A stretch of DNA of 64,000 nucleotides from Candidatus Hodarchaeota archaeon (lineage in GTDB: Archaea; Asgardarchaeota; Heimdallarchaeia; Hodarchaeales; Hodarchaeaceae), in the NCBI GenBank assembly GCA_029856365.1, contig JAHQWW010000007.1:5778-69777 (forward strand), given 5' to 3'. The notes under the pieces were generated by a model that was not told where the DNA came from, ran no database searches, and worked only from the letters and a program-made list of their open reading frames with translations. The position numbers and the translations under genes were made by a program. Position 1 is the stretch's first letter, and the number at the start of each line of letters is the position of its first letter. This document shows positions 27,220 to 54,781 of the stretch, piece after piece.

Positions 27220-27921
27220 ATGAAAATAGTCCTAATAGGCCCCTACAATAGTGGAAAATCAACGACAGTCCAAAAGATATGTAGGGGTTCTGCAGTCTCT
27301 ATTGATTATGGTGGAACAACAGTTGCTTTAGATCATTGTCGAACAAAGATTTATGGAGTTGAAATTTTCCTATTTGGAACTCCTGGACTTCAACGATTCG
27401 AGATAATCCGAAAAATCTTGAGTAAAGGAGCAGATGGTATCCTCTTTGTAGTTGATTCAGTGAATGTAGCTTCATTTGAAGAAGCTAAAAAACTATTGAA
27501 TGAAGTTTATGACATATTACCAGGCGTTCCTATTGTCCTCTGTGCAAATAAACAAGACATACGAGGAGCAAAAAGTCCCAACGAAGTAGCAGAAGTGGTT
27601 TTAGGAAAAAATAAAGACAAAATTTCAGTTATAGGAACTTCAGCAACAACTGGAGAACAAATTGAACACGCCTTAGGTCTAATTGTGCTTAATGCGATCA
27701 AACAGTATTATGATATTCTTATAGCAGTGAAGAAATCAAATGGTGAACTTGCAGAGATTGCAAAAAACATCCAACAACCTGAAGAGAAAGTTTATTCACA
27801 ACTTCAATTTGCCTCTTGGAGACGACTTATAATAGCTGATTGGGACAACTTAACTTTTAATTTAACGATAGGAGTTTCGAATATTACTGATATACTTGAA
27901 TTTGGACACAAACAGTTTTAA
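27220..27921 (+). CDS. MglA/COG2229-like small GTPase with a roughly 70-aa C-terminal extension
   Basis: GPYNSGKST (G1), FGTPGLQRF (G3 with Thr in place of Asp, as in the MglA family), CANKQD (G4), TSATTG (G5). Confidence 0.7.
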   Translation: MKIVLIGPYNSGKSTTVQKICRGSAVSIDYGGTTVALDHCRTKIYGVEIFLFGTPGLQRFEIIRKILSKGADGILFVVDSVNVASFEEAKKLLNEVYDILPGVPIVLCANKQDIRGAKSPNEVAEVVLGKNKDKISVIGTSATTGEQIEHALGLIVLNAIKQYYDILIAVKKSNGELAEIAKNIQQPEEKVYSQLQFASWRRLIIADWDNLTFNLTIGVSNITDILEFGHKQF

Positions 27922-27961
27922 GTAATTATTCATAGACTATTTTAACAAGGAGTTGGCATAT

Positions 27962-28138
27962 ATGGTTGAAAAACCTGATGTCTATATTTGTCAAAAGAAG
28001 GAATGTGGTCATCGTTTTCAGAAAGCGAAATTTATTACTGTTGAAGAAGATGGGGTCTATATAACAAAGCCTTCTTGTCCAGAGTGTGGTACAACAGATA
28101 TAATATCATCTGCTTGGTTGTTAAAAGAAGAGAAATAA
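27962..28138 (+). CDS. Small zinc-ribbon protein
   Basis: CQKKECGH...CPECGT. An AAGGAG SD lies 10 nt upstream of the ATG at 27962. Confidence 0.45.
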   Translation: MVEKPDVYICQKKECGHRFQKAKFITVEEDGVYITKPSCPECGTTDIISSAWLLKEEK

Positions 28139-32196: not shown

Positions 32197-32745
32197 ATGC
32201 CTACAAAATTGTTTGGTCGAGAGATAGAAAATCAAATAGCATTTGTTGGCCTTGCAAATGCGGGGAAAACTACCTTAGTTAAAAGACTTAAGGGAGACGA
32301 TAATCTAGAAACCGTACCAACAATGGGGATGAATATTGAGACTTTAAAAATTGGTGACATTGAAGTAATGGCTGCAGATCTAGGAGGACAGGCAACATAT
32401 CCGACGAGCTTATGGAAACCATTTGTTTCAGATGCATCAGGTATTGTGTTTGTATTTGATTCTGCAGACAGATCTAAAGTCGAGAATGCGGGAAAGTGGT
32501 TGAAGAACGTCATTCAATGGGCGCCAGAAGATTCTGCATTTCTTTTCTTGGCAAATAAACAAGATTTAACAGAAGCAATGACTCTTGAAAGAATTATTTA
32601 TACATTAGAACTTGAAAAAGAGATGGCTGCAAGACCTAGAACGTTTGCTGTTTATCCTTGTTCTGCATTAACAGGTGATGGGGTCGAGGAACCGTGGCAG
32701 TGGATGAGCGACAGGTTTCGTCATAGAATGTCACAAAAAAAATAG
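32197..32745 (+). CDS. Arf/Arl-like small GTPase
   Basis: GLANAGKTTL (G1), TMGMN (switch I), DLGGQ (G3), ANKQD (G4), CSALTG (G5). There is no Gly2. Confidence 0.8.
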   Translation: MPTKLFGREIENQIAFVGLANAGKTTLVKRLKGDDNLETVPTMGMNIETLKIGDIEVMAADLGGQATYPTSLWKPFVSDASGIVFVFDSADRSKVENAGKWLKNVIQWAPEDSAFLFLANKQDLTEAMTLERIIYTLELEKEMAARPRTFAVYPCSALTGDGVEEPWQWMSDRFRHRMSQKK

Positions 32746-32754
32746 GTGCCCCAT

Positions 32755-33318
32755 ATGAGTTTCCTTTCAAAGCTTCGCGCAAAATTTGCCAAAGAAAAAT
32801 TAACGGTAAAGATCGCGTGGCTGGGTCTTGACCAGGCAGGGAAAACTACATTAGTCAAAAGAATAACATCTGGAGAGTTTAACAGTAGTACTTTCCGAAC
32901 ATTAGGGATGAATGTTGATGAATTTAGTTCGGGAAATGTTCGATTTATTTCTTGGGATATTGGGGGGCAAGAAGCCTTTCGTGAATCTCTTTGGGAAAGC
33001 TATATGGCAGGTAGCATGGGAATCGTATATGTGGTGGATTCAGCCGATAGAGCTCGACTCTCAGAAGCTAAGATGGAATTATGGAAATATGTCCTTGATA
33101 ATGATAAAGTTGAAAACATACCAATTTTAGTCCTTGCTAATAAACAGGATCTTGAAAATGCCGCTTCAGCTGGAGAGGTTGCTCGAGGGCTCAATCTTCA
33201 TAAAGTTACGACACATTCATATGCTATCGTTCCCACGTCTGCCAAAACTGGTTTTAACGTTGAGGAAGGACTTGAATGGCTTCGCCAAAGGGTGACTGAA
33301 AAAATCGATCTCTTATAG
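32755..33318 (+). CDS. Arf/Sar-like small GTPase, tandem paralogue
   Basis: GLDQAGKTTL, TLGMN, SWDIGGQEAFRESLW (Arf-type WDxGGQ interswitch), ANKQD, TSAKTG. Confidence 0.85.
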   Translation: MSFLSKLRAKFAKEKLTVKIAWLGLDQAGKTTLVKRITSGEFNSSTFRTLGMNVDEFSSGNVRFISWDIGGQEAFRESLWESYMAGSMGIVYVVDSADRARLSEAKMELWKYVLDNDKVENIPILVLANKQDLENAASAGEVARGLNLHKVTTHSYAIVPTSAKTGFNVEEGLEWLRQRVTEKIDLL

Positions 33319-33368
33319 TAAAATCTCTATAATATTCTGTTTCTTCATGGTAGATATTCTAAGTTAAT

Positions 33369-34178
33369 CTAACGTTTTTTCTTCATGACTACCTTTTCAG
33401 AAACCTCATTAATCCGGTCACAAAGTGCAAGAAACAGTGCATGTAACCTTTCCAGATTCAAATCTTTGTTAATTCGTGCATAAATACGAATGGATGGATC
33501 ATCAGCAGAATTGACAGAAATTCTAACAACTACTTTTCTAACATTATGAATCAGTTTCAAAAGGTTTTTATCACCGAGAAAGTATGTTCCTGTCCGTTGG
33601 GTGGTCGCTTTAACCAAAAAAAAATCATCAAATCTTTTTACTCCGAGCTCGATGTCTTCAAGTGTAAACAGGAAATCTTGATGTTTTTTTATTTGACCTT
33701 CTTCATGTTTAGGTATGATCTGAATCTTGGTAGGAATTTGAGAACGGATTTCTCCCTTTTTTGAGTTTGCCTCTAGTGCTATATAATCATTTACTCCTGC
33801 AAACCATGAGATGATGACTGATAACATGAGATGCCTTTCTTCTAGGGCAAATACCACACGGAAGTCTTGAAAGGGTATATCATGTGATCTCTTGTACTTG
33901 GGAAGTAACAAACCCCCGTTTGAACTCATTTCATCCATAACAAGATCATCGAATTCGTTTGTAAAGACTTCCAACAATGCTTCTCGTGATAATCGCATAA
34001 TTTTGCGATTTTTTCGTCTTCCAGCCCATAAAAGGTAGAATGTAAAGAATAGAACCGTCCCTGGGCCTAAGAATATTAAAACATAGTCTATCATCCCATA
34101 TCCTTCTTGGAGGAAAAAACGAGGAAAATTTTCTAGAGGAAACTCAAAAAATCCCAAATTCAACATCATTGAACTCAT
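33369..34178 (-). CDS. N-terminally membrane-anchored protein of unknown function
   Basis: One TM helix (VLIFLGPGTVLFFTFYLLW) followed by RRKNRK, then a 220-aa soluble alpha/beta region with no recognisable motif. Confidence 0.45.
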   Translation of the reverse strand: MSSMMLNLGFFEFPLENFPRFFLQEGYGMIDYVLIFLGPGTVLFFTFYLLWAGRRKNRKIMRLSREALLEVFTNEFDDLVMDEMSSNGGLLLPKYKRSHDIPFQDFRVVFALEERHLMLSVIISWFAGVNDYIALEANSKKGEIRSQIPTKIQIIPKHEEGQIKKHQDFLFTLEDIELGVKRFDDFFLVKATTQRTGTYFLGDKNLLKLIHNVRKVVVRISVNSADDPSIRIYARINKDLNLERLHALFLALCDRINEVSEKVVMKKKR

Positions 34179-34307
34179 GGCTCATAATTAGCTTGCAAAT
34201 TTAAATTATTTTTCGTCGGAATCTTGTTTTTAATTTGCATTCTGTAGGAAAATGCTTCAATTCGTTGACGCTTTTCCCCTCAAAATATGTTAAATGACTA
34301 AGGGTTC

Positions 34308-34907
34308 TTAATGCTGTATAAAGCTAGCAATTTCCTTGTATCTGAAGGAATCTTTCCCATTTTCCCCTATAACTTGGTAAAATTGAAAAGCAGCACGACC
34401 AGAAATATCAATCTTGGTAGGTTCAATAACAAGTGCAATAGAAAGAGCATTGTGGAGCTGAAAAGAATAAATATGAGTTTTTATATCTGTTTGAGATAAA
34501 AATAGGCCATATCCAGGATGAGAATGCCACCAACCAAGGCAATAATAGTCATCTTCCAATATATCTTCAAAAACCCTAAAATCTTCTTCAGAAAAAGAAA
34601 CAGATACTTCATCACCTTCAGAAACAAAAATGATTTTTAATATTTCCAATTCTTTGGGACGTAGTTCTTTCCCACCTAACAGACCAATAGCTTCCCTAGG
34701 CATAGATTTTACTGAATATTCAGTTATTTCATCAAGTAATTTTCCTAAGATTGATACTGACTTAACTTGGGGAGATGAAGGAATTTTTAACTTTTCGATT
34801 TCCGCTTGTTTACCAAAAAAGCCCTCTTGTATTTTATTAGTAGTCTTCCCTTCCGTTATTTTATAATTTTCTGCCCTCAATCCTTTTTGTTTATTATTGT
34901 CAGACAT
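34308..34907 (-). CDS. JAB1/MPN/Mov34 (JAMM) metalloprotease, Rpn11/CSN5-like deubiquitinase
   Basis: Catalytic Glu in PREAIGLLGG and the JAMM motif GWWHSHPGYGLFLSQTD. Confidence 0.85.
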   Translation of the reverse strand: MSDNNKQKGLRAENYKITEGKTTNKIQEGFFGKQAEIEKLKIPSSPQVKSVSILGKLLDEITEYSVKSMPREAIGLLGGKELRPKELEILKIIFVSEGDEVSVSFSEEDFRVFEDILEDDYYCLGWWHSHPGYGLFLSQTDIKTHIYSFQLHNALSIALVIEPTKIDISGRAAFQFYQVIGENGKDSFRYKEIASFIQH

Positions 34908-34939
34908 AGATCATCCACAATACCAATTCCACAAGAAGT

Positions 34940-35482
34940 TTACTTTGCATGCTTCTTGGTCCAATCTTCAGCTGTTTCCCAGAATTTATCAAAATTTGTT
35001 TTCATCATCTCTCCAGCTTCAGGATTAAAGGGATCATTTGGATCAACAAGATATTCTGGAAAATCTACATCCCCTGTTGCCTGATAAACATCTAACATCA
35101 TTTCAACATGTTCAAAGACACTGGGCAAAGTTATCGTTTCCTTCCAACCACCAGGTTTCCCTAAGTTATTCCAATTCACAAGACTTAAGCATACATTGGA
35201 GCCCCAGTTCCATTGAGTTTTACCAGTTGCAATATTAGGGTGATATATAGGAGTCAGAAAGTTGATAATTGGAGGTTTAAAGGGATATTCAGAAGGTAAG
35301 TCAAGAGTGATCTCCCATTTACCTCCCTCATAAGGAGTATTTTTCTTTCCTTTAATAGTCGCTTTGTAATGATGAAGGTCATTATTGACTATAGCCCATT
35401 TAATGGGACTTTTTTTCGGTGGATAAGTTTTCAACATCCGTTTGAACTCTTCTCGTAGCCGTCTAGAGTGTAAATCCTGCAC
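34940..35482 (-). CDS. Ubiquitin-conjugating enzyme E2 (UBC fold)
   Basis: YPFKPPIINFLTPIYHPNI (HPN motif), followed by the active-site region NVCLSLV. GTG start. Confidence 0.85.
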   Translation of the reverse strand: MQDLHSRRLREEFKRMLKTYPPKKSPIKWAIVNNDLHHYKATIKGKKNTPYEGGKWEITLDLPSEYPFKPPIINFLTPIYHPNIATGKTQWNWGSNVCLSLVNWNNLGKPGGWKETITLPSVFEHVEMMLDVYQATGDVDFPEYLVDPNDPFNPEAGEMMKTNFDKFWETAEDWTKKHAK

Positions 35483-35703
35483 GATCTTACCATCCTACCA
35501 TTTTTATCATTATATAATCTATGATAAATTATAATTTAATATCATTTAACGCTAAAGATAACTTATAAATTATACAAGGTTGCCGATATTTAAAGCTGTG
35601 GCTAGGAAATGGAAGAAAAGGTGTAGAATAAGCTAGCTTTTTAAGGTCTAAAGACTGACTCATCTTGCACGAACATTCCTCACATAATGGGTGATCAAAA
35701 AAA

Positions 35704-36498
35704 ATGGAGGATACACAAACTGATATTTCTCAATGTAGCGGTTGTGGGGCGCCCCTTCCAATAAGACCAACATATCAACACCCTATAAAGTGTGAATACT
35801 GTGACCTGACAAATTATCTGAAACGGGCCGCTATCACACCAGCAGAAGCACAAATGATGGATGCAGAAGAAGAAGCTGAAAATTATTATCTTATTTACCA
35901 AGAATCACAGAAAATTCTTGAAAATTTTCCTGGGGAATTTGTTGGTGATGAAGTAAGTAAGATAAGGATAAAGATGCAAGTAAAAGAATACGCTTTTCCT
36001 CTCTTTCTTGTGTTGGATGATTTACCTGACCGACCTTACATTGATGGCCCTGCTAAACTTAGAGAAATATTAGATTGTGAAATCAATGATTTAAAAGGAA
36101 TGAAAAACTGGACTCCCGGTTCAGGTTCAGTACTGAGCGTGTTAGAAGAAATTTATCAGAAAGCTGAAGAAGGACTTCCCCGAGTCATGGAAGAACCCGT
36201 TATAGCGTCTTCTGAAGTTTCTTCTATAATTCAAGAAGAACGTGATCCTCTTATACGTCAAATCCTCGCGAATTATGATGCTTCAGCAGATAAAAAAGAG
36301 ATTAATGTAAGATTTTATGCCCAGAATGGTGAAGTCATAAATTTTGTCATTAGGAGAAAAAAGAATTTACCTATAGGTCTTGAAAGTGATATTTTGACTA
36401 AATATCCTCTTATCCGAGGGCCTTTAGAGGATTATGCCAAAGGACGGATTGATATTCTTTCTACACTCTCAGAAATTGAACGTATGTTTTACACTTAA
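35704..36498 (+). CDS. Zinc-ribbon protein with non-catalytic E2-like (RWD/UEV-like) domain(s)
   Basis: CSGCG...CEYC at the N-terminus. The stretch YQESQKILENFPGEF...IRIKMQV...FLVLDDLPDRPYIDGP...VLSVLEEIYQKA follows the RWD/UEV secondary-structure pattern. No HPN or Cys active site was seen. Confidence 0.45.
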   Translation: MEDTQTDISQCSGCGAPLPIRPTYQHPIKCEYCDLTNYLKRAAITPAEAQMMDAEEEAENYYLIYQESQKILENFPGEFVGDEVSKIRIKMQVKEYAFPLFLVLDDLPDRPYIDGPAKLREILDCEINDLKGMKNWTPGSGSVLSVLEEIYQKAEEGLPRVMEEPVIASSEVSSIIQEERDPLIRQILANYDASADKKEINVRFYAQNGEVINFVIRRKKNLPIGLESDILTKYPLIRGPLEDYAKGRIDILSTLSEIERMFYT

Positions 36499-36520
36499 GT
36501 TAATTAAGAAGGTGAAAATT

Positions 36521-36841
36521 ATGAGTAAAAAGGATGTAATTTGGGATTCTACTTCTACAGGAAAAACCCCTGACAGTGGTATTGAAAAAATGATTAAAAT
36601 TCGCTTTAAGGATCCACAACTTCCTCCAGATCAAAATATTCGTGAAAAATACATCAACATTAACGGAACTGTATTTCAAGCAATCACAGCGGCTCGTGAT
36701 GCATTTAATATTCCAGAAGTTGTACCGATCGCTTTATTATTCAAGGGAAGAAGAATGAATCCTTCAAATAATCTTTCTTCCTATGGAATCGAACAAAATG
36801 CAATTCTCATGATAGTTCCAGACCAGATTAAGGGGGGATAA
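36521..36841 (+). CDS. Ubiquitin-like beta-grasp protein ending in Gly-Gly-stop
   Basis: ...ALLFKGRRMNPSNNLSSYGIEQNAILMIVPDQIKGG* parallels the ubiquitin C-terminal half. A GGTGA SD precedes the ATG at 36521. Confidence 0.8.
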   Translation: MSKKDVIWDSTSTGKTPDSGIEKMIKIRFKDPQLPPDQNIREKYININGTVFQAITAARDAFNIPEVVPIALLFKGRRMNPSNNLSSYGIEQNAILMIVPDQIKGG

Positions 36842-36880
36842 TTCCCTCTTATTTTAATTTCAAAAGGAAGATTTCAGAGT

Positions 36881-38110
36881 ATGACACAGGATCTTCCTTC
36901 TTCCAAATATGACCGACAAGAACGTCTATCTCTCTGGGATCAACATATCGTTGAAGATAGTGTAATTTTAATAGCAGGAGTAGGAGGGACAGGTAGCGAG
37001 GTAGCTAAGAACTTAGCTTTATTGGGTATTGGTGGTTTGATCCTTGTTGATGTTGACACCATAGAATTTTCTAACTTAAATCGTCAAATGTTGTTTAAAG
37101 AGGAGGATGTTGGGAAGAAAAAGGTAGAAATTGCAACAAAAAGGATTCGAGAGAGATTTAATCCCGATATAAAGATTGAAAGCTATTCAAACCTCCTCCA
37201 AAACTTACCACAAAGGATTTTTCACAAAGTTGACATCATCGCAGGCTGTGTAGATAATTTTTTGGCGCGACAATATCTTAATGCTATGGCGGTTGAACTG
37301 AAAATACCTTTTATTGATTCAGCTACCGATGGTTATTTCGGACAAATCCAGTACATAAAGCCAAAAGATACTGCTTGTTTAGCTTGTGAAACACCCCAAC
37401 CGCCTAATGAAACTCGAGTTTTAACAGCTCCTTGTACCTTAGTGGGAGTTCCTCGTGTGAGAGAACATTGTGCTTGGAAAGCGCTTTATGAATTTAGTAC
37501 TATCCATGAGCGTGAACCTATAGATACCTCGGCTGAAGATATTGCTGAACTTACAAAATTAGCAAATAATTTTGCCTACGAGTACAATTTTGGGCAATTT
37601 GATGAAAAACAACTCTTACAATTAATACTTTTCCACGTACCCAGTCTGATCACTGTTAATGCGGTAGTCAGTGGTCTACAATCTCAAGAAATCATAAAGT
37701 CTCTCTTTTTAGAAAAAAAAGATATTATGAAAGAAAGGGAACGCAAAATCCTTGAAAATTTGCTAAAAGCTCATAGATTCCGCATCCCTTCATTTATCAT
37801 ATATTCTGCGTTAACAGGGACTATTAATACATTCGATTTAGTTCCTGATCCAAGTTGTCTTGTTTGTGGTCAATCTAATACCGTTGTAGATTCCATCCAA
37901 ATCGTAACAGTAGATCGTAAGTCAAGATTTGGATCTCTTCTTGATACGATTCGAGAAGAACATAATAAAGACTATGTTGGGTTTCGAGGAAATCTCATCA
38001 TACCTGATGATGGTATCATCCAAAAATTTCTTTCTGATGGTGATCGGATAACTCTTAGTTCTTTAGCTGATGATGAAGAAATACGTTTGCAAATAAAATT
38101 TCTAAATTAA
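36881..38110 (+). CDS. E1-like ubiquitin-activating enzyme (ThiF/MoeB/UBA family)
   Basis: GVGGTGSEVAKNLALLGIGGLILVDVDTIEFSNLNRQ adenylation motif, CLAC/CLVC zinc site, and a eukaryote-type PCTL catalytic-Cys motif (TAPCTLVG). Confidence 0.88.
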   Translation: MTQDLPSSKYDRQERLSLWDQHIVEDSVILIAGVGGTGSEVAKNLALLGIGGLILVDVDTIEFSNLNRQMLFKEEDVGKKKVEIATKRIRERFNPDIKIESYSNLLQNLPQRIFHKVDIIAGCVDNFLARQYLNAMAVELKIPFIDSATDGYFGQIQYIKPKDTACLACETPQPPNETRVLTAPCTLVGVPRVREHCAWKALYEFSTIHEREPIDTSAEDIAELTKLANNFAYEYNFGQFDEKQLLQLILFHVPSLITVNAVVSGLQSQEIIKSLFLEKKDIMKERERKILENLLKAHRFRIPSFIIYSALTGTINTFDLVPDPSCLVCGQSNTVVDSIQIVTVDRKSRFGSLLDTIREEHNKDYVGFRGNLIIPDDGIIQKFLSDGDRITLSSLADDEEIRLQIKFLN

Positions 38111-38218
38111 CGACACAATAACCTCTAGAGCATAAAATGTGACTTTCTCTTTATTTTTTTCCCTGTTTCCTCTATGCTCTTCAATTACTAGTTTCACACA
38201 AAATAGAAGTACTTTTAA

Positions 38219-38533
38219 TTACTTTTTATAAAATAATCGTATCTTGTCCCTTCTTTTGGGGAGAATTGGATTGATTTTCGGTTTCAGGTAAGGTTCTTTA
38301 AAACCAAGATCAGGGGCTTTTTCATCAGTTAATCGGTCATAAATCTTTCCAATTACTTGATCTCGTGATTTTTGAGTGATTTGCGGCTTTTTATAGAATT
38401 TTCGAGCAACTCTAGGGCGGTGATGGGGAATCTCCACGCGTTTCCCACACTTAGGACAATACCAACTCCCAGAGACAGGGAGATCTCGAGGAATATGACC
38501 ACAATTTGCACATTTGAATTCATTCTGAGCCAT
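38219..38533 (-). CDS. Small basic zinc-ribbon protein
   Basis: CANCGH...CPKCGK followed by a Lys/Arg/Pro-rich tail. The ATG at 38533 has a gagga SD. Confidence 0.45.
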   Translation of the reverse strand: MAQNEFKCANCGHIPRDLPVSGSWYCPKCGKRVEIPHHRPRVARKFYKKPQITQKSRDQVIGKIYDRLTDEKAPDLGFKEPYLKPKINPILPKRRDKIRLFYKK

Positions 38534-38657
38534 TATATTTTTTCCTCTGGCTTTTCCCACTAAACTTCAATACTATAAAAGCCTAAAGATTTTATAAAAA
38601 AATATTTCTCGGTTTTTTCATATAAAAATTTTACAGCAAGAGATCTGGGTCAGACCA

Positions 38658-40409
38658 ATGTTTGGGAGAAAAAGACAAAAATGGTTCACAGAAGCTCAAA
38701 TGGCACATACTCTGCTTAAATTCCGTGAAATGGCACCAAGAGAAAACCCAAGCGTTATTGCTGCATTTTTGCGTGAAAAAATTGGTTCAAACGAGTTAAA
38801 TGGCTTTGTTAGTTTTGATGACGAAAAATTCATCCCTAAAAAGTTCCTTCACCAATGGATATCTCGTGAATTGGCAACAAAAGGTTTTATAGACATATGT
38901 GATGTTATTGACACTACAAACTTACCAGGTGAGCTACTAGAACACCAAATCAAATTGGCAGCTCAAAATATCGAGGGGTTCTTTGATATCATTCATCGAA
39001 AATTCTTCACCCTACAAGGAGCTAAAGCAGAAATCAAACAGAGAGTAAGTACAAATACCACAATGGATCTGAAATATCTCTTGAACCAACTCTATTGGAC
39101 TGAAGAATACTTAGAAGGCGTTTTGGAGCTTATTGCCCAAGAAAATCAATTCATTGGTTACATTGATCCAATAAAAAAACGAATATATAATTTTACTCTT
39201 TTAAATTTCTCCTCTCCCTCAGACATGCAAAAAAATATCAAATATCTCATTCGTTTTATAAATACAAGTTTTCAATTGGAATCTGAAGTCTCAGTTAACC
39301 ATATTAGTAAATTAACACAACTATCAGAAGAAGAATGTCTAGAATTTCTGGAAAGAATTCGAAACCAAATCAGCTTCATCTTTTCCGCTAACTACCATTA
39401 TCTATATTCCACTATGGACATTATGAACCAAATCTTGAAAGACATTTTCGTTTATCGAAATATTCCTATTGATTTCTGGATTCGACGTCTCGATGTAGAC
39501 AGACCTGATTTTTTCAATATGCTAAATATTTTAAATCAGAGTTTAAAGGGAACTTTGTCTGTAGAAGATTTTAGTGCTTCTTCTTTAAGCGAATGGTTCG
39601 AAAATGGAATTGCTGTTGAGGATTTAGCATCATCATTAAGTCTAGACCCATTAAAACTCTTAGATCGAATTCTCAAGTTAGCAAAGCTCCTTGGATTACG
39701 ACTTATAGCAGGAGAAACCTCTGATCCCTTTTTAGTTAAAGGTGTAAGATATTTTGAAATTTTTTGCCAAATAGACACGTCTTCTTATACGGATCCTGGT
39801 CTTTATTTCGAGTGTCAAAACTGTCGACGAATTATGTGCTCAAATTGCCGTTCTACAGGAAGTAAACATGAATGTCCGTTTTGTGGAAACATTTCTGCTT
39901 TTATTATCGATCTTCCTAGATATTGTCCCCATTGTAGGGTTAACTACACTCACTCTTACAATTTAGTGAGCACAGAGGAATGCTATTTCTGCAAAAAGGG
40001 TCCTTTAAAAATTGGATGGACTGAATACGAACCAATCCCACTTAAATCATCTGAATTAGATCCAACTCTCTTAGAATTTCTTGAACAGTCATCTAAAGCT
40101 GAAATTCCACTCAAACAAATAATAAATTTAATTAACCGCTCTGATAGCGAAACAATTAAACTATTAGAAAGCTACATCTTACGTGGTACGATTCAAGGGA
40201 GGATCAATATTCGAGAAATGACTTTACAATTAGCTTTACAAGAAGAAAAATTTCTTTGTGGTGTTTGTGAACTTTCTAAAACGGATTCTATCAATTATTT
40301 CTGCACATCTTGTGGCTTAAAATTATGTACAGATTGCTATAAAGAGATGAGCATAGTAGGAATGATTTTTTGTCCTGAATGTGGGGGAAGTTTGCAGGAG
40401 AACAAATAA
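38658..40409 (+). CDS. Multi-winged-helix protein with several Cys4 clusters and a C-terminal C4C4 cross-brace (RING-like) finger; candidate E3
   Basis: Repeated WH-like xxGxIDxxxxxxxF modules (FIGYIDPIKKRIYNF, ILRGTIQGRINIREMTLQL). The C-terminus has the spacing C-x2-C-x11-C-x2-C-x4-C-x2-C-x11-C-x2-C (nt 40257-40382). Confidence 0.4.
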   Translation: MFGRKRQKWFTEAQMAHTLLKFREMAPRENPSVIAAFLREKIGSNELNGFVSFDDEKFIPKKFLHQWISRELATKGFIDICDVIDTTNLPGELLEHQIKLAAQNIEGFFDIIHRKFFTLQGAKAEIKQRVSTNTTMDLKYLLNQLYWTEEYLEGVLELIAQENQFIGYIDPIKKRIYNFTLLNFSSPSDMQKNIKYLIRFINTSFQLESEVSVNHISKLTQLSEEECLEFLERIRNQISFIFSANYHYLYSTMDIMNQILKDIFVYRNIPIDFWIRRLDVDRPDFFNMLNILNQSLKGTLSVEDFSASSLSEWFENGIAVEDLASSLSLDPLKLLDRILKLAKLLGLRLIAGETSDPFLVKGVRYFEIFCQIDTSSYTDPGLYFECQNCRRIMCSNCRSTGSKHECPFCGNISAFIIDLPRYCPHCRVNYTHSYNLVSTEECYFCKKGPLKIGWTEYEPIPLKSSELDPTLLEFLEQSSKAEIPLKQIINLINRSDSETIKLLESYILRGTIQGRINIREMTLQLALQEEKFLCGVCELSKTDSINYFCTSCGLKLCTDCYKEMSIVGMIFCPECGGSLQENK

Positions 40410-40416
40410 CTCTATC

Positions 40417-41307
40417 TCATGACATCTGAGCTTTAAATTGAGCCAATTTTTTAGAATACTTATCTGTAAGTTCCTTGTACTTTTGTTCTGAGATTTTACC
40501 ACTGAGAAACATTTCATCAGCTTGCTCAAGCATTTGTTCATACTTTTTCACTTTCTCTGTTATGTCATCAAGCGACTTTCTTTCTTCTGTCAACTCTCGA
40601 CGTTGCTCTAAAACTTGCTTCTCGACTTCATACGATAACAAGGCTTGATATTCATCAGGTACCTTGAAACCTCCAATATCCAAGCCAACTAATTCTAATC
40701 CCCAACGAGAGGTTTCGGGTCCAAGCTCTGAACGAGTTTGGATTTCCAAGCTTCTACGTTCCTTGAGCATCTCGGGTACAGAATATCGTGACAATACATG
40801 TTTTACTGCTGCGATGATCGTTTGCTTGACCCAATTCTTCAATTCATCTCCAGAATAATATTTCTTATGCGAAACAATGTTCATAATAAAATTACGGGGA
40901 TTGACAACCCTCATACGAGAAATACCATAAGAACCTACCATTATATTATCAGAAGTATAAATCCCAGGTGTTCCCCATTTGATAATGAATTCTCGTTTGG
41001 TTACCCAGATAATTTCACTTCCAGGCTGTTTTGCACTCTTATCAAGCTCATAAATACCACTTCCTGCGATCCCCACTAAAGATCCAGATTGTAGCAAAAT
41101 GGCATTTTCTGGGTCTTTAACAATGAATCCATCATACTTCCGAAAACCATCAAGATCTTCGGATTTAATCCTACAAATCAATGAACTTTTTGCTTCTGGG
41201 CCAAAATCTGAACTCAAAATCGATTTTCCCTTAAATTTCTTTGTTCCAATATGTACAGTATCGCCTATTCTACGAAATAATCCACCATATTTCTCTACTT
41301 CTGCCAT
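40417..41307 (-). CDS. SPFH/Band-7-superfamily protein (YdjI/'virion core protein'-like subtype) with C-terminal coiled coil
   Basis: The pattern FIVKDPENAILLQSG...IIWVTKREFIIKWGTPG...GISRMRVVNPRNFI...LKNWVKQTIIAAVKHVLSRYSV follows the SPFH-like fold, with a heptad tail. A GGTGA SD lies in the 10-nt gap after the upstream gene. Confidence 0.55.
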   Translation of the reverse strand: MAEVEKYGGLFRRIGDTVHIGTKKFKGKSILSSDFGPEAKSSLICRIKSEDLDGFRKYDGFIVKDPENAILLQSGSLVGIAGSGIYELDKSAKQPGSEIIWVTKREFIIKWGTPGIYTSDNIMVGSYGISRMRVVNPRNFIMNIVSHKKYYSGDELKNWVKQTIIAAVKHVLSRYSVPEMLKERRSLEIQTRSELGPETSRWGLELVGLDIGGFKVPDEYQALLSYEVEKQVLEQRRELTEERKSLDDITEKVKKYEQMLEQADEMFLSGKISEQKYKELTDKYSKKLAQFKAQMS

Positions 41308-41317
41308 AAGATTTCAC

Positions 41318-42319
41318 CTACCATCCATTGTCCCCATATAATCCAGGAAAATAATATTGATCTCCTGTATCAAGAGATGAAACTTTTCGTGCAATTTTTT
41401 GTTCAATAAGGCTTTCAAGAACTCTAATTACACGCTGATGATCCCATTTTGTTCCCATTACGACCTCTTCCAGTGTAACATATCCCTTATTAACTGCAAG
41501 ATCAAAAACTTTCCTTGCATCGCTCCCGAGAGTGACTGGAACAAATTCTACTATCTTAACTCCGGATCGTTTTACAATTCCTTCAATGAGAGATTGTTTT
41601 TTAAGGCGTTTACAGGATTTTTCCAGATCTTTTGTGGAGAATTCTACATCAGGAACTTGAGTTTTTAAGGCTGTATAGAGATTTGCCAGCGAAATATAAC
41701 CACCAGAACTAGCTCGGAGATTTTTTCCATATTCAAGAATCAAATCGTCTAATGTTTCTTCAAACTTTCCTTTTCCAAACAGTTTTGGTTTTTTTGTTAC
41801 ATCTAGAGCAGTTACAGTCAAAGCGCGACCTTCTTTACGTAATAGCTCTTGCTCTAGCTGAGTAATCCGAGTATCGTATTTTTTCTGTAAGTTTTTAATG
41901 CTTTCAGTCGATACAGGGGCTCCATCAGCCAATTTTTTTTGAACTTGGACAACTTCATTTAGTCGAGTGATTTGTTCTCGAATCTCACGAATTTCATCTC
42001 GAATATCCAAATCCTCTTCCCCAAAATCAAGATCCTCTGCTAATCGCGTTGATTGGTCTGCAATTCGCTCACAGAGAATGGAAGCAAGCAATTGCGCAAC
42101 CCGTATTTCACCACTCGATTTGAGATTGGATTTGGTTTGGTCAGGATGTAGAATGAAATCAGGAATAGTTTCACTTATATACCGAATCTCCTCAAATTTT
42201 GTATAGATCCTCACCGTTATATCTGCGACACTTCGAGCATTCGTTGAAACACTATTATTTAAACGTGTCAAGGCATTACTGGCTTTTAAAAAGTATTCTT
42301 TCACGAATTTAACCACCAT
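41318..42319 (-). CDS. ESCRT-II Vps22/SNF8 (EAP30)-like tandem winged-helix protein with a roughly 170-aa N-terminal coiled-coil extension
   Basis: The C-terminal 150 aa align by eye with human SNF8: SGGYISLANLY vs NGGLITLEEL, STKDLEKSCKRLKK vs SQDDLIRAIKKLKA, and GYVTLEEVVMGTKWDHQRVIRVLESLIEQ...QYYFPGLY vs GYVTVSEIKASLKWETERARQVLEHLLKE...HYWLPALF. Confidence 0.75.
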   Translation of the reverse strand: MVVKFVKEYFLKASNALTRLNNSVSTNARSVADITVRIYTKFEEIRYISETIPDFILHPDQTKSNLKSSGEIRVAQLLASILCERIADQSTRLAEDLDFGEEDLDIRDEIREIREQITRLNEVVQVQKKLADGAPVSTESIKNLQKKYDTRITQLEQELLRKEGRALTVTALDVTKKPKLFGKGKFEETLDDLILEYGKNLRASSGGYISLANLYTALKTQVPDVEFSTKDLEKSCKRLKKQSLIEGIVKRSGVKIVEFVPVTLGSDARKVFDLAVNKGYVTLEEVVMGTKWDHQRVIRVLESLIEQKIARKVSSLDTGDQYYFPGLYGDNGW

Positions 42320-42825
42320 TCTTAGAATGACACACGGATATGCATTTACATTCTTATTTTAGAGGCGAGTCTTTAGTCCATATGTAACAGGCTCTCCGTA
42401 TTAAAAATTATTCTTATATTTACACTAATCACGTTTTTTGTCTTTTTAAAGCTTTATGTTTGGGCGTTTTCTGACTTGTATTGTGGTTATTTAACTTTCT
42501 CTGATTGGTAATCCCTTGTCATTAAGCTGGAATTTAAAACAGAACTGATATTCAAGATCACTGGTTGCATTCCATGTTACCTCTGAAATATTCATAGAAC
42601 TAATTCGTTCAGGTGGCATATAGATTGTTGTGATGGTGGTTGTCATAATTAGTTTTTATTGCGATGTTTACTTTTATGTAATCGTTTTAGAATGTGATGA
42701 TAATGTTTCTCGCGATTCCAGAGTTCTTATCAAAGTGGAAAAAGATCTTTTACTTATTTCAACCACTATTCCCTAGCTTAGGAAGACATAATTCCTCAAT
42801 CCCGCTTTTCAAAGCTGTGAGGAGA

Positions 42826-46748: not shown

Positions 46749-47246
46749 GTGATAGATCCCAGAAGATTCGACACTGTACTTAGTAAAATCATTAAAAGCG
46801 AACCAGGTATTAAAAAAGTAATCCTAGTAGATCGAACTGGTCTCACAATTGCCCACGTTTCTAAATTTAGCTATGTATCTGTTGATGTAGATGGGATTGG
46901 TGCAATAGCATCCGCTGTATTTATGGCGTCAGCCGAACAAGGACTAAATCTCACAATAGGCGGCCTAGATATCGTTACCTCAGAATTTGATACTGGAAAA
47001 ATTTTTGCTAGTACATGCGGGCGCGGAATTTTGACAATTATTTCAGATGCCGATGTAAATATAGGTATGATTAGATTACTCATGAGAAAAGCTAATGAAG
47101 AACTCAGTAGTATATTAGACGAATTTTTAGCTGGAAAACCCACACGTATAGGCATTGGAGGGGTAGCTTCTGCGACTCCTGAGGTTCGTACAAGTCTTGA
47201 AAAAGATGAACTAGAAGCAGCATTACGAGAACTCGAAAAATTCTAA
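46749..47246 (+). CDS. Roadblock/LC7 (MglB-like) domain protein with C-terminal extension
   Basis: GIKKVILVDRTGLTIAHVS...GIGAIASAVFMASAEQG...GKIFASTCGRGILTIISD. Confidence 0.75.
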   Translation: MIDPRRFDTVLSKIIKSEPGIKKVILVDRTGLTIAHVSKFSYVSVDVDGIGAIASAVFMASAEQGLNLTIGGLDIVTSEFDTGKIFASTCGRGILTIISDADVNIGMIRLLMRKANEELSSILDEFLAGKPTRIGIGGVASATPEVRTSLEKDELEAALRELEKF

Positions 47247-47293: not shown

Positions 47294-47881
47294 TTGAGAA
47301 AGGATGCAGAAGGTCGTCATCGATTCAAAGTTGTATTCTATGGCCCATCTCTGGGTGGGAAAACAACAACATTAGCTTGGTTATATAAAAGAGTAGATGG
47401 TCTTGAGAAAGGAAAATTTACTCAGTTAGCAGATCCCACGGGCCGCACTTTATTTTTCGATTTCGTCCCAATGCAAGCAACCACGGGTGTTGTTTTTGAT
47501 GTGTATACTACTGCAGGTCAAGAACGTCACAAACATCAGCGTAAAATAGTCATACAAGGAGTAGATGGTCTTATATTTGTTGTTGATTCTAGTGCTTCAC
47601 AATTTCAAGAGAATGTGGAATCTTTCAATGAGTTAAAATCTCGTTTAGGTAATCAACTGGGTAAAACCATCCCTCTTGTTATTACTCTCAACAAGCGAGA
47701 TGTACAGGATGCTTTGCCTAGATCAGAGTTGATTCAAAAGCTCGAAATCCAAGATTATCCCATATATGAGACTGTTGCGACCACGGGTCTCGGAGTCAAG
47801 CGTGCATTTCAATCATTGGCTCGTGAAATCCTTATGATCCAGCTTTATGGAACTAAAGAGTCTCAAATAGCCAAAGCTTAA
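47294..47881 (+). CDS. MglA-like small GTPase
   Basis: FYGPSLGGKTTTL (G1), VYTTAGQERH (MglA-type TxxGQ G3), LNKRD (G4), TVATTG (G5). TTG start. Confidence 0.75.
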   Translation: MRKDAEGRHRFKVVFYGPSLGGKTTTLAWLYKRVDGLEKGKFTQLADPTGRTLFFDFVPMQATTGVVFDVYTTAGQERHKHQRKIVIQGVDGLIFVVDSSASQFQENVESFNELKSRLGNQLGKTIPLVITLNKRDVQDALPRSELIQKLEIQDYPIYETVATTGLGVKRAFQSLAREILMIQLYGTKESQIAKA

Positions 47882-48223
47882 ATCGTTCTAGAATGAAGAC
47901 AAGAACTGACTCTCAATTCATCTCTCGACAAAAATACCTACTTTGCAAATCAATTTATCACAAAGAAACAACATGTTGATCCACACTTTTTGATTGTGTA
48001 TCTAAAATGCACTATCCTATGATTCATATTATAACACCTACATGTCAGGTACTTATTTTTTCCTTCCTGTTTTTTTTATCCTTGATCTGCTTTGATGGTT
48101 CGAAGATGTCGTTTTCTAGGAATCATGGATCCTGCTAGATTTTTAGGAATAAGAATTCTTATATATTAGAATTATATTATTCACATAAGTCGCCAAACTA
48201 AAGAATATACAACGGCATCAATT

Positions 48224-48300
48224 GTTACAAGAATGATAGAAATTCGAAATAACGTTATGAGCATGATAAAAATTTGAGAAAACGTTACAAGAATAACCAA
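48224..48300. repeat. Degenerate 30-nt-period direct repeats immediately upstream of the second Roadblock gene
   Basis: The exact 11-mer GTTACAAGAAT occurs at 48224 and 48284. AACGTTA occurs at 48251 and 48281. Units 48241-70 and 48271-300 match at 21 of 30 positions. Confidence 0.4.
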
Positions 48301-48317
48301 TAGTACGGGTGTAATAA

Positions 48318-48722
48318 GTGTACATTCCAGATAGTGAAACAGATACCCAGGTGCATAAAGAAATAGCAGAAGTGCTTGAGGCTTTTGTGAGTAAATTACC
48401 AGCAATAGATTTTGCCTCGGTAGTGTCCTTGGAGGGATTACCAATTTCATCTTGGCCACCAACCTTACCTTCAGGATTGGACGATGTACGAGTTGCGGCT
48501 ATGACGGCTGCCATCTTAAGCTTGGGTGAAAGAGCTGTGATGGAGACTGGAAAAGGGGAAATGACACGTATCTTAGTTGAAGGAGACAGTGGATACCTGA
48601 TTTCTGTCCAAGCAGGTTCAAAAGCTGTCTTAACGACTTCAGCAAGTCGTTCTGTGAAATTAGGGCTAATATTTCTTGACATGAAGCAAGCAGCTATAAA
48701 AATCGGTGAAATTCTCGGCTAA
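48318..48722 (+). CDS. Roadblock/LC7 (MglB-like) domain protein
   Basis: AIDFASVVSLEGLPISS...RVAAMTAAILSLGERAVMETGKGEMTRILVEGDSGYLISVQAGSKAVLT. GTG start. Confidence 0.8.
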   Translation: MYIPDSETDTQVHKEIAEVLEAFVSKLPAIDFASVVSLEGLPISSWPPTLPSGLDDVRVAAMTAAILSLGERAVMETGKGEMTRILVEGDSGYLISVQAGSKAVLTTSASRSVKLGLIFLDMKQAAIKIGEILG

Positions 48723-52753: not shown

Positions 52754-52875
52754 TATAAAACATCCTAGCGAGAGGATTAAAAAGCTAGCCGGATTCGCTC
52801 CTGTCAGAAGGAATGAGTTTGTAAATCATCTCTTGATCACTTTTACAACTTTATTTCCAAGGATTTTGAAGTTTG

Positions 52876-53292
52876 ATGACAACAGAAAAAAACTATCTTG
52901 CTTCTCTTAAACGTGCTAGAGACAATCTTCCAGCTCATGTGTTTGAAAAGTCACGTTTTAAAATCCCACATGCGGATGTTTTCAAAGAAGGAAACAAAAC
53001 ATGGATAACTGATTGGGCAAGGATCCTCAAGACATTAAATAGAGAAAATGAGGCAGATCATCTAGCTAAACACTTAGCAAGAGAATTTGCTACATCTTCT
53101 ACTGAAGAAAGAGGACGATTATGTTTACAGGGGAAATTCTCCAGTGGAATGATAAATCGCGAGTTGGAAGCATATGTGAAAGAATTTGTTTTATGTGAAG
53201 AATGTGGAAAACCCGATACTAGACTTATCAAAGAGGGACGCATATTAATTAAAGTCTGTGAAGCTTGCGGTGCCCGTGTTGCGGTCAAATAA
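52876..53292 (+). CDS. eif2b: Translation initiation factor aIF2 beta
   Basis: C-terminal zinc ribbon CEECGKPDTRLIKEGRILIKVCEACGA. Confidence 0.88.
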   Translation: MTTEKNYLASLKRARDNLPAHVFEKSRFKIPHADVFKEGNKTWITDWARILKTLNRENEADHLAKHLAREFATSSTEERGRLCLQGKFSSGMINRELEAYVKEFVLCEECGKPDTRLIKEGRILIKVCEACGARVAVK

Positions 53293-53323
53293 TTCTCCTC
53301 AGCGTTCATCGTCGTCTAGTCGT

Positions 53324-53635
53324 GTGTATTTTAAGGTTCATCGAAAAAATAATGTTGAAATATTAGCTTTATGTGATGAATCACTTTTAGGGCAAGAAAT
53401 ATTCAACGAAAAGGCCCGAATGAGAATCCCAGTTGATTTTTACAGGGGTCAAGAGATAGAAGCACAGGATGCTCTGCAATTGATGAGAAATTATGCGAAC
53501 ATCAACGTTGTAGGTTCAGTACTAGAACTCGGAATTCGCAAGAATCTCATCAATGAAGATGCAGTGCTGTGGTTCTCCACACTGGAAGGAAAAAAAATCC
53601 CACATCTGTTGATATTCTCTATCCCTCCCCTATAA
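53324..53635 (+). CDS. DUF424-like small archaeal protein
   Basis: YFKVHRKNNVEILALCDESLLGQ...FYRGQEI...INVVGS pattern. GTG start at 53324 chosen to avoid overlap with aIF2 beta. Confidence 0.5.
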   Translation: MYFKVHRKNNVEILALCDESLLGQEIFNEKARMRIPVDFYRGQEIEAQDALQLMRNYANINVVGSVLELGIRKNLINEDAVLWFSTLEGKKIPHLLIFSIPPL

Positions 53636-53651
53636 CAATTGGAGGTTTGTT

Positions 53652-54752: not shown

Positions 54753-54781
54753 TTGTTTTATTAAAGGACGGATGAGTCTAA

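Follow-up and report, generated by a model that had tools for sequence, protein, structure and literature searches.

A probable chromosomal ubiquitin-system locus in a Hodarchaeales archaeon, its core lying between two other small gene blocks

What is one to make of an archaeal locus in which genes for a ubiquitin-type conjugation system lie beside genes for two Arf-like GTPases, a membrane protein, an SPFH protein and a relative of a subunit of the endosomal sorting complexes that are required for transport (ESCRT)? The question is raised by twelve consecutive genes (g1 to g12, numbered by position; Table 1) at 32197-42319 of a stretch of 64,000 nucleotides, here called the window, from Candidatus Hodarchaeota archaeon (GenBank assembly GCA_029856365.1, contig JAHQWW010000007.1, positions 5,778 to 69,777 of the forward strand). 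An earlier note on this DNA had taken the twelve genes to be an island, and the island to be one undescribed module for ubiquitin-directed membrane remodelling. The analysis reported here leads to a different verdict. The locus is a lineage-specific variant of a known Asgard ubiquitin cluster, made up of at least three blocks, and not an undescribed single membrane-remodelling module. In its general form, we consider it likely that this is a chromosomal ubiquitin-system locus whose core sits between two other small blocks. In some phylogenetic analyses, no other known archaea are closer to eukaryotes than Hodarchaeales, a placement that is disputed.

The core of the locus is, going by sequence, a eukaryote-type ubiquitin cascade. 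Its ubiquitin-like modifier (Ubl, g7) starts at 36521 (MSKKD..., 106 amino acids (aa)), where comparison with its orthologues puts the start, and not at 36434, the position assigned earlier. Pfam reports Rad60-SLD (4.6e-6) and ubiquitin (1.1e-4) for this protein, and ubiquitins are the only matches that its family profile finds in the PDB. Its orthologues all end in GG, except for one that ends in GGN. Across loci in which g10, the predicted E3 discussed below, drops to 45% identity, the Ubl remains 78-100% identical. Such near-invariance in a protein whose E3 diverges is, of course, the behaviour expected of a conjugated modifier. The one orthologue that ends in GGN (in locus L012) would need processing at its C-terminus, presumably by the JAMM enzyme; elsewhere the modifier is encoded in its mature form.

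Orthology with UFM1, to which g7 bears some likeness on visual inspection, was considered and rejected. A single-sequence search aligned mouse Ufm1 (1j0g) end to end with g7 only at E = 1, the family profile gave ubiquitins only, and hhalign favoured ubiquitin (E 1.4e-4) over UFM1 (E 0.023, probability 2%, with a UFM1 query sequence that may be inexact). Ufm1 homologues have been reported for nine clades of Asgard archaea (Köstlbacher et al. 2026); to judge by its sequence, g7 does not look like one of them.

The enzymes agree with the modifier. The adenylation domain of the E1 (g8) is nearer to UBA1, UBA2 and UBA3 than to ThiF or MoeB: in comparison with the PDB, UBA1 is matched at 4.5e-39, UBA2 and UBA3 at ~1e-30, ThiF at 2e-25 and MoeB at 1.8e-22. 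UBA5 follows at 7e-19, well behind UBA1, and a UBA5-like E1 is ruled out. Pfam adds a faint E1_4HB match. The E2 (g5) has Ubc4/UbcH5 as its best PDB matches (2e-21) and carries HPN...C with a short insertion (motif HPNIATGKTQWNWGSNVC); it is UbcH5-like with HPN, which rules out a UFC1-like E2. In the isopeptidase (g4), the metal site H-x-H-x7-S-x2-D is intact (WWHSHPGYGLFLSQTD), with a Glu upstream. The clustering of E1, E2, Ubl, JAMM and predicted RING protein in two divergent operons is clearly not a matter of chance.

Central to the argument is g10, the predicted E3, which was studied through a family alignment of 41 members and an AlphaFold2 model. Searched against the PDB, the family profile finds human UFL1 at 3.3e-7 to 4.6e-6, in the profile's N-terminal third. 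The Pfam family E3_UFM1_ligase (PF09743) is matched by 22 of the 41 members, at best with 3e-6. The model (predicted local distance difference test (pLDDT) 85, predicted template modelling score (pTM) 0.70) runs from an N-terminal helix through about six winged helices to a beta-rich zinc module, a further winged helix and a beta-beta-alpha finger. When this model is compared with the PDB by Foldseek, the top five matches are all UFL1 (5.8e-10 to 5.2e-8). SelB comes next (3e-4), and PCI proteins of the COP9 signalosome (CSN) and lid, as well as ESCRT-II, are also among the lower matches, far behind UFL1.

The C-terminal part of g10 goes beyond such an array. Twelve zinc ligands are invariant in the family (C370, C386, C389, C394, C397, H404, C406, C409, C423, C426, C442 and C445), and these should be enough for three zinc sites; the module that they define has weak B-box, ZZ and NOB1-ribbon matches in Pfam, and a relative of g10 in locus L024 keeps the same ligands. 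Pfam PCI is matched by 32 of the 41 members (best 1.6e-8). The winged helix of DDRGK1 aligns, weakly (E 0.3-1.2), to profile positions 461-527, and through this alignment the PCI matches are assigned to what would be a winged helix at residues 465-526. Eight invariant cysteines at 534-575 then follow with the spacing C-x2-C-x11-C-x2-C-x4-C-x2-C-x11-C-x2-C, which we take to be that of a NOT4-type C4C4 RING. As a profile, the last 55 residues match mainly RING fingers in the PDB (UHRF1, MAT1, BRE1, NOT4, TRIMs), weakly, at E 0.015-0.3, and it is these residues that form the beta-beta-alpha finger of the model. Sequence and model together predict that g10 is an E3 ligase in which a UFL1-type array is joined to a three-zinc module, then to a PCI-like winged helix and finally to a C4C4 RING. 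The earlier note had pointed to a protein of no obvious family sitting where an E3 would be expected; this protein is, by prediction, just such an E3.

How close is g10 to UFL1 itself? UFL1 has a partial N-terminal winged helix that is completed by the membrane-anchored DDRGK1. The UFL1-UFBP1(DDRGK1)-CDK5RAP3 ligase (Makhlouf et al. 2024, PMC10937380) shares its tandem winged-helix array with g10, by profile and by fold, and DDRGK1 has a PCI-type winged helix like that predicted in g10. UFL1, however, has no RING, HECT or RBR domain, and works as a scaffold-type E3 with UFC1 and UFM1 (PMC10937380), whereas g10 has the predicted C4C4 RING-like finger and three-zinc module, and is encoded beside an E1 like UBA1, an E2 like UbcH5 and a GG-ended modifier like ubiquitin. 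A candidate for a membrane-anchored partner (g3) is encoded nearby here as well, but it bears no resemblance to DDRGK1. Because a RING is predicted and no UFM1, UBA5 or UFC1 lies alongside, g10 is UFL1-like in its scaffold and not a UFL1 orthologue in its mechanism. The locus thus holds what appears to be a UFL1-type winged-helix ligase that still has a RING, at one place with genes for an E1, an E2 and a modifier of the ubiquitin type. It would give a concrete picture of what UFL1-like proteins did before UFM1, the question raised by Picchianti et al. 2023.

In the same window, 22 kb from g10, there is a gene for an NFACT (NEMF/Rqc2-type) ribosome quality-control protein (8469-10514, minus strand; NFACT_N 1.8e-55). 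PDB entry 9gy4, one of those matched by g10, holds UFL1 with NEMF on the 60S subunit. A distance of 22 kb between genes is too great for a link to be drawn from it.

Two smaller proteins accompany the cascade. The first, g6, opens with a zinc ribbon (CxxC...CxxC, residues 11-33), and its AlphaFold2 model, of moderate quality (pLDDT 77, pTM 0.48), places two alpha/beta domains after the ribbon. By sequence, neither the PDB nor Pfam gives a family for g6, a single match to a strand of SUMO2 being at chance level. By structure, Foldseek finds FANCL in the PDB (5.5e-4 to 9.8e-4, probability 1.0), the DRWD domain of FANCL (3zqs, 0.02), the RWD domains of the kinetochore proteins KNL1 and CENP-O, and E2 enzymes (0.04-0.5). 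The model thus suggests a zinc ribbon followed by a tandem RWD/UBC-like fold, with FANCL its closest structural match; the RWD/UEV-like description given earlier is borne out to this extent. FANCL combines domains of the UBC/RWD fold with a RING, as this system is predicted to do. Here, however, the RWD domains and the predicted RING belong to different proteins (g6 and g10), g6 adds the N-terminal ribbon, no similarity can be detected in sequence, and the E-values given by Foldseek are modest (5.5e-4). Homologues of g6 are confined to metagenome-assembled genomes (MAGs) of the Hodarchaeales type.

The second, g9, is a four-cysteine ribbon whose orthologues share the C-terminal motif ...G(F/Y/L)K(E/D)PY(L/I)(N/K)P.... 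Orthologues also support its start at 38533 (104 aa), the one chosen earlier. It is present in every Hodarchaeales-type locus that covers its position.

A sequence of steps may be proposed for the core block, which would consist of the divergent E2-JAMM-g3 and g6-Ubl-E1 operons together with the adjoining g9 and g10. These steps are read from domain content. The Ubl would be made already ending in Gly-Gly. The UBA1/2/3-like E1 would adenylate it and form a thioester with it, and the Ubl would then pass to the canonical HPN-Cys E2. The C4C4 RING of g10 would promote its discharge onto lysines, from which the JAMM enzyme would remove it again. Here, the UFL1-type winged-helix array of g10 may act as a docking platform for a substrate or a large partner. 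The role of g6 might be that of a non-catalytic cofactor with the UBC fold, either as a binder of ubiquitin or E2, or as a substrate adaptor like the DRWD domain of FANCL. Of the two flanking blocks, the first (g1-g2 with g3) would probably constitute a GTP-switched membrane site, with g3 drawn into the E2-JAMM operon in Hodarchaeales, and the second would be the Vps22-like/SPFH operon.

The arrangement of the genes is consistent with such a division. All twelve open reading frames (ORFs) appear in the ORF list of the window at the positions that the earlier note had given for its twelve consecutive genes. Its family calls (two Arf-like GTPases, JAMM, E2, GG-ended Ubl, E1, SPFH and Vps22-like) hold by Pfam, which places eight of the twelve above threshold (g1, g2, g4, g5, g7, g8, g11 and g12); the four that it had left without an obvious family (g3, g6, g9 and g10) have no Pfam family above threshold either. 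The word island, in contrast, is a misnomer. The GC content is 0.35-0.37 in the locus and the same in the rest of the window; this means that there is no compositional island. Coordinates and gaps point to six transcription units (g1-g2; g5-g4-g3; g6-g7-g8; g9; g10; g12-g11), with g9 and g10 each apparently transcribed alone. Within the units the gaps are 0 bp (g1-g2), 32 and 129 bp (E2-JAMM-membrane protein), 22 and 39 bp (RWD protein-Ubl-E1) and 10 bp (Vps22-like-SPFH). The divergent region between the E2 and RWD-protein units putatively holds promoters for both. A search of 28.0-47.5 kb for Rfam families was negative, as was one for tRNA genes over all 64 kb of the window.

Table 1. Features of the locus, in window coordinates
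Feature	Description	Coordinates	Strand	Basis
g1	Arf-like small GTPase, 182 aa, first of the g1-g2 unit	32197..32745	+	Pfam Arf 6.5e-39
g2	Arf-like small GTPase, 190 aa, 0-bp gap to g1	32746..33318	+	Pfam Arf 7.9e-48
g3	single-pass membrane protein, 269 aa, last of the E2-JAMM-g3 unit	33369..34178	-	hydropathy, Pfam
g4	JAMM/MPN+ isopeptidase, 199 aa	34308..34907	-	Pfam JAB 1.4e-9, Prok-JAB 1.4e-8
g5	canonical E2, 180 aa	34940..35482	-	Pfam UQ_con 2.9e-24
Divergent intergenic region	221 bp, between the g5-g4-g3 and g6-g7-g8 units	35483..35703	.	
g6	zinc ribbon and two RWD/UBC-like domains (predicted), 264 aa	35704..36498	+	AlphaFold2 model, Foldseek
g7	ubiquitin-like modifier, 106 aa, ends ...IKGG-stop	36521..36841	+	Pfam, profile, orthologues
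g8	E1 activating enzyme, 409 aa	36881..38110	+	Pfam ThiF 4e-55
g9	small protein, 104 aa, a zinc ribbon followed by a conserved, basic C-terminal tail	38219..38533	-	sub-threshold zinc-ribbon Pfam matches
g10	predicted E3, 583 aa, multi-winged-helix with RING-like finger	38658..40409	+	
g10, residues 1-363	N-terminal helix and about six tandem UFL1-type winged helices	38658..39746	+	profile, model
g10, residues 367-450	beta-rich module, 12 invariant Cys/His	39756..40007	+	family alignment
g10, residues 465-526	PCI-type winged helix, weakly DDRGK1-like	40050..40235	+	Pfam PCI, profile
g10, residues 530-583	C4C4 RING-like finger	40245..40406	+	invariant Cys, profile, model
g11	soluble SPFH/Band-7 protein, 296 aa, with a coiled coil at the C-terminus; downstream in the g12-g11 unit	40417..41307	-	Pfam
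g12	Vps22/SNF8-like protein, 333 aa	41318..42319	-	Pfam EAP30 1.4e-10

A cluster of this general kind is not new. The InterPro entry IPR018611 is, we take it, that of UFL1. The same entry is the marker for "ubiquitin-ligase enzyme E3" in Hatano et al. 2022 (PMC9192718), where the co-location of ubiquitin and ESCRT genes in Asgard archaea was catalogued and the sets were found clustered in Heimdallarchaeota. One of the genomes plotted there, B3_Heim, carries the present locus (L015), and the locus can accordingly not be called undescribed. Other Asgard surveys likewise list "UFM1-protein ligase 1 (E3)"; UFL1-like E3s are, in short, a marker that is by now standard for Asgard archaea. An origin of UFL1 and DDRGK1 in Asgard archaea, before UFM1, was proposed by Picchianti et al. 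2023. The published Asgard ubiquitin(-ESCRT) clusters (PMC9192718; Liu et al. 2020 preprint), like this one, bring together genes for ubiquitin, E1, E2, a deubiquitinase, the UFL1-type E3 marker and a Vps22-like protein; the present locus differs from them in that Vps25, ESCRT-III and Vps4 were not found among the scanned ORFs of the 64-kb window. The hodarchaeal cluster described by Lu et al. 2023 is a different one, in which UEV-Vps23 and ubiquitin occur with Yip1 and a Rab-like GTPase.

What, then, is particular to this variant? The terms "SPFH" and "Arf" occur 0 times each in Hatano et al. 2022 (PMC9192718). In the Asgard ubiquitin/ESCRT papers that were searched, no mention was found of the Arf-like pair, of the g3 family and its link to Arf genes, of g9 or of the pairing of SPFH and Vps22-like genes, nor any description of the RING and three-zinc additions on a UFL1-like E3 or of a FANCL-like protein such as g6. 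The locus thus offers three conserved accessory candidates: the FANCL-like double-RWD protein, the single-pass membrane family with its Arf-like pair, and the basic zinc-ribbon protein. The kind of system is already known; the details of its architecture and its accessory genes were not found in the papers searched.

Caldiarchaeum subterraneum reportedly has an operon with E1, E2, small-RING E3 and Rpn11, which together with a Ubl make up a minimal cascade of the eukaryotic type. The present locus has a similar set of Ubl, E1, E2, predicted RING E3 and JAMM. It differs in its E3, a protein of 583 aa that has a UFL1-type array and further zinc modules and is not a small RING protein, in a Ubl that is encoded mature, and in the double-RWD and membrane proteins encoded inside its operons.

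The block to the left of the core starts with the two Arf-like GTPases. The G motifs of g1 read GLANAGKT, DLGGQ and NKQD, those of g2 GLDQAGKT, WDIGGQ and NKQD, and g2 has an amphipathic stretch at its N-terminus (SFLSKLRAKFAK). A Gly2 for myristoylation is present in neither g1 (which starts MPTK) nor g2 (which starts MPHMSF). Identity is 74-95% for g1 in orthologous loci where it is complete, and 87-96% for g2 across the order.

Beside them lies g3, which has the only transmembrane-like segment in the locus (residues 29-53, by hydropathy). The earlier note had seen proteins without a family where an adaptor or membrane receptor would be expected; with this segment, g3 becomes the membrane-anchored candidate for an adaptor. 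Its family is small, with 26 representatives, all of 58-281 aa, found by the g3 profile among 1.84 billion proteins. Pfam gives sub-threshold matches to CCDC47 (PF07946) at E <=0.05 for 16 of 37 and for 6 of 22 members of the family. The best of these, at 25.5 bits against a cut-off of 27.7, aligns residues 39-253 with positions 11-252 of a model of 326, and the matches are collinear and nearly full length (~215 residues). A search of the PDB by sequence gave no match to g3, and the profile search among the 1.84 billion representatives returned no eukaryotic and no eukaryote-sized CCDC47. CCDC47, a subunit of the PAT complex at the ribosome-Sec61 translocon, has one transmembrane helix followed by a cytosolic domain, as has g3; g3 is, however, about half its size. 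On these sequence matches, homology between g3 and CCDC47 has roughly an even chance of being real. A DDRGK1-like identity was also tried for g3 and gave no signal, CCDC47 emerging instead, below threshold. None of the papers searched names CCDC47 together with Asgard.

One assembly holds both the full locus and, in the other of two contigs (L043, JBHLRO010000009.1; L020, JBHLRO010000018.1), a second, divergent gene of the g3 family beside an amino-acid permease. At least two paralogues of the g3 family are thus present in these genomes. The context of this second gene is similar in L029 and L030. In another lineage (L031 and L032, 2293-4183), a gene of the g3 family comes after those for a zf-AN1 protein and for a protein of 177 aa that has no annotation. 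AN1 fingers occur in stress proteins linked to ubiquitin and the proteasome.

The block to the right consists of g12 and g11. The two C-terminal winged helices of g12 match human SNF8 at 1.6e-12 over residues 178-329, and yeast Vps22 at 2.5e-4, and EAP30 is matched in 9 of 9 orthologues. They are shared with ESCRT-II Vps22/SNF8, from which g12 differs in having a long helical N-terminal extension (~135-175 residues), for which no known family was matched, and in being paired with an SPFH gene and not with Vps25. A Vps28-like N-terminus was considered; VPS28 was matched in 1 of 9 orthologues only, which is taken as noise. The SPFH protein g11 matches Band_7 at 7.8e-15 and Band_7_1 at 2e-12, and is 74-93% identical across the order. 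It has no membrane anchor, its highest 19-residue hydropathy being 1.18, with no window at 1.6. Among 30 larger ORFs scanned outside the 12-gene locus in the window, no Vps25, Vps36, ESCRT-III or Vps4 was found, and by Pfam labels there is no Vps25, ESCRT-III or Vps4 in the related locus L023 either. What had been called ESCRT-II is accordingly one Vps22-like protein, with Vps25 and Vps36 not found among the ORFs scanned.

The Vps22-like gene is separated from a GNAT gene by 506 bp (42320-42825) in which no ORF reaches 60 aa. The gap exceeds its counterpart in L023 (261 bp) and has no Rfam family or tRNA inside.

Are all these genes one module? The earlier note had asked whether the neighbourhood is conserved, and it is. 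A scan of one genome per GTDB species gave 22 loci, B3_Heim and Candidatus Hodarchaeum mangrovi among them, and collinearity was judged by tblastn of 21 window proteins against these 22 loci. Homologues of g10, g3 and g6 number ~64-66 proteins each, near constant in length, and the named ones are all from Hodarchaeales/Heimdallarchaeota MAGs. In every locus long enough to judge, the twelve genes are collinear, even at 45% identity of g10. This was seen in the 22 genome loci, in one further contig, with a more divergent g6 homologue (52% identity), and in 2 long metagenome contigs. The flanking genes, however, are equally collinear: CGI-121, phosphoribosyltransferase (PRT), threonyl-tRNA synthetase (ThrRS), GNAT, aIF2-alpha, S27e, Gins51, prepilin peptidase and a Roadblock protein. 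Gene order is thus frozen throughout the order, unrelated housekeeping genes included, and because of this synteny is uninformative as to whether the twelve genes function as a module. The order-wide synteny is not evidence of an operon-like module.

More can be learned where the frozen order is broken. The contig L042, of 53 kb, belongs to an archaeon that is more distant, with an aIF2-alpha that is 45% identical. The housekeeping frame is kept there (GTPase, THUMP, CGI-121, PRT ... GNAT ... Nop10, aIF2-alpha, S27e, Gins51), and inside the frame a g3-family gene adjoins orthologues of g1 (56%) and g2 (54%). The genes for JAMM, E2, g6, Ubl, E1, g9, g10, SPFH and EAP30 are absent from the contig. 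A second case is L024, a contig of 2.2 kb from another lineage, which holds the C-terminus of a relative of g10 (211 residues, 38% identical, all zinc ligands kept), then a g3 relative, and then a converging g2 relative (67% identity), an order that differs from that of the window. Other distant relatives of g3 are in unrelated contexts, most without ubiquitin genes, and some are paralogues from the same genome. A scan of metagenomes for rearranged contexts like that of L024 found only loci of the Hodarchaeales type, in the same order.

Our reading of these contexts is that the Arf pair and g3 form an older trio, which occurs also without ubiquitin genes, and that the ubiquitin block with its E3 is a separate unit lying beside the trio in Hodarchaeales. 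L024 suggests that there is a real connection between E3, g3 and Arf genes. For the Vps22-like/SPFH operon, position is the only tie to the other genes.

Some points weigh against this reading. The window's own g10 misses Pfam E3_UFM1_ligase at E 0.1, and the link appears in its relatives and in the family profile only. The RING is predicted from the spacing of its ligands, from profile matches that are weak and from a modelled fold. The split into blocks depends on one long distant contig (L042) and one of 2.2 kb (L024). Loss of genes in the lineage of L042 would give the same picture as insertion in Hodarchaeales, and several of the distant g3 matches are paralogues, with no bearing on orthologous context.

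Suppose, instead, that the twelve genes are one module after all: the Arf-like proteins and g3 would recruit the E3, ubiquitylated cargo would pass to the Vps22-like and SPFH proteins, and the membrane would be deformed. The twelve genes are, of course, adjacent, and their order is kept throughout Hodarchaeales; g3 is co-oriented with E2 and JAMM; E3-like, g3-like and Arf-like genes stand side by side in L024 in another arrangement; the Vps22-like gene is only 7 bp and one gene away from the E3; and co-location of ubiquitin and ESCRT genes is published for Heimdallarchaeota. Against this, the synteny extends to unrelated housekeeping genes to the same degree, the scanned ORFs of the 64 kb include no Vps25, ESCRT-III or Vps4, and L042, where the Arf pair and g3 are kept, lacks ubiquitin, SPFH and Vps22-like genes altogether. 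The SPFH protein, moreover, lacks a membrane anchor and is linked to the rest by position alone. For these reasons the single module proposed earlier now seems unlikely, and a locus of several blocks is preferred.

A bolder proposal looks to the ribosome, and sees in the locus a forerunner of UFMylation. Here, the array of g10 would dock at the membrane onto the ribosome's large subunit, and g3, as a CCDC47-like protein, would mark the translocon site; this must be thought improbable. No better in its prospects is the sequel, in which a ribosomal or translocon protein would be modified with the GG-ended Ubl through the canonical E2 and RING, and eukaryotic UFL1 would later have lost the RING and gained UFM1, UBA5 and UFC1. 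Equally doubtful is the form in which g10 and g3, switched by the Arf-like pair, would act on membrane-bound ribosomes or translocons and be ancestral to the RING-less UFL1-DDRGK1 ligase for UFM1.

Several observations speak for these ideas. The array of g10 is specifically UFL1-like and comes with a winged helix that is weakly DDRGK1/PCI-like; the CCDC47 matches of the g3 family are collinear; in L024 an E3-like gene directly adjoins a g3-like one. In human cells, CCDC47 and the UFL1 complex have similar ways of docking on the 60S subunit (PMC10937380, Extended Data Fig. 3k), and UFL1 and DDRGK1 of Asgard archaea have been proposed to predate UFM1 (Picchianti 2023). Yet every CCDC47 match is below the Pfam threshold, with none in the PDB sequence search, and the g3 profile found no CCDC47 of eukaryotic size among 1.84 billion proteins. 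The E1, E2 and Ubl are of the ubiquitin type and not of the UBA5/UFC1/UFM1 type, and winged-helix arrays bind many partners other than ribosomes too. The proposal would be of high interest if true, and would put ribosome-translocon surveillance before the origin of the endoplasmic reticulum; currently, it is weakly supported.

An antiviral conjugation system of the Bil kind, or of the Cap2/Cap3 kind from the cyclic-oligonucleotide-based antiphage signalling system (CBASS), with accessory effectors, might be imagined from the PADLOC E1-E2 model on g8 (5.8e-18), the JAB model on g4 (7.6e-9) and the match of g8 to Citrobacter BubCD (5.8e-10), but it is highly improbable: the matches are at the level of domains and far weaker than those to UBA1 (4.5e-39) and UbcH5 (2e-21), the E2, Ubl, g10, g6, g3 and SPFH proteins have no PADLOC match, and a locus fixed order-wide in a housekeeping frame, with a modifier that is nearly invariant, is the opposite of a patchy defence island. 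Hardly to be credited, too, is a sulfur-carrier or SAMP-type system, with an E1 and a beta-grasp protein serving cofactor or tRNA thiolation, for although NCBIfam models for ThiF, MoeB and SAMP-E1 match g8 at 1e-36 to 1e-29 (all below cut-offs) and a desampylase model matches g4 weakly (2e-4), the E1 resembles UBA1, UBA2 and UBA3 more closely than it does ThiF or MoeB, the match of the Ubl profile is to ubiquitin, and a canonical E2 and a predicted RING E3 are present, neither of which, to our knowledge, is used by sulfur-carrier systems.

The ubiquitin-system locus of several blocks is set in unremarkable surroundings. The window holds genes for the DP2 large subunit of DNA polymerase D (4214-7537, plus strand), for a family-B DNA polymerase (56152-58701, minus strand) and, in one run, for aIF2-beta, NMD3 and an RsmB-type methyltransferase (52873-56155, plus strand); these mark it as an ordinary chromosomal neighbourhood of informational genes. 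Two ORFs, 59223-60905 (minus strand, 560 aa) and 48218-48682 (minus strand, 154 aa), have no Pfam family at E <=0.001. Two of the loci that are collinear with the Hodarchaeales locus (L004 and L020) were deposited as "Hermodarchaeota" and "Thorarchaeota", labels that look inconsistent with their gene content.

Further small GTPases are encoded on both sides of the locus. To the right, a Roadblock/LC7 gene (46749-47246, plus strand; 2.4e-8) is followed by one for an Arf/Ras-like GTPase (47294-47881, plus strand; Arf 2.6e-12), the two forming an apparent pair; the Roadblock protein is 85-97% identical in all related loci that reach its position. To the left, a fourth small GTPase (233 aa; 27220-27921, plus strand) has counterparts in L023 and L042 that are labelled Arf/Ras. 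It is followed by a 61-aa ORF for a four-cysteine zinc ribbon (27953-28138, plus strand) and next by a THUMP protein, and this trio of GTPase, ribbon and THUMP also heads the housekeeping frame in L023 and L042.

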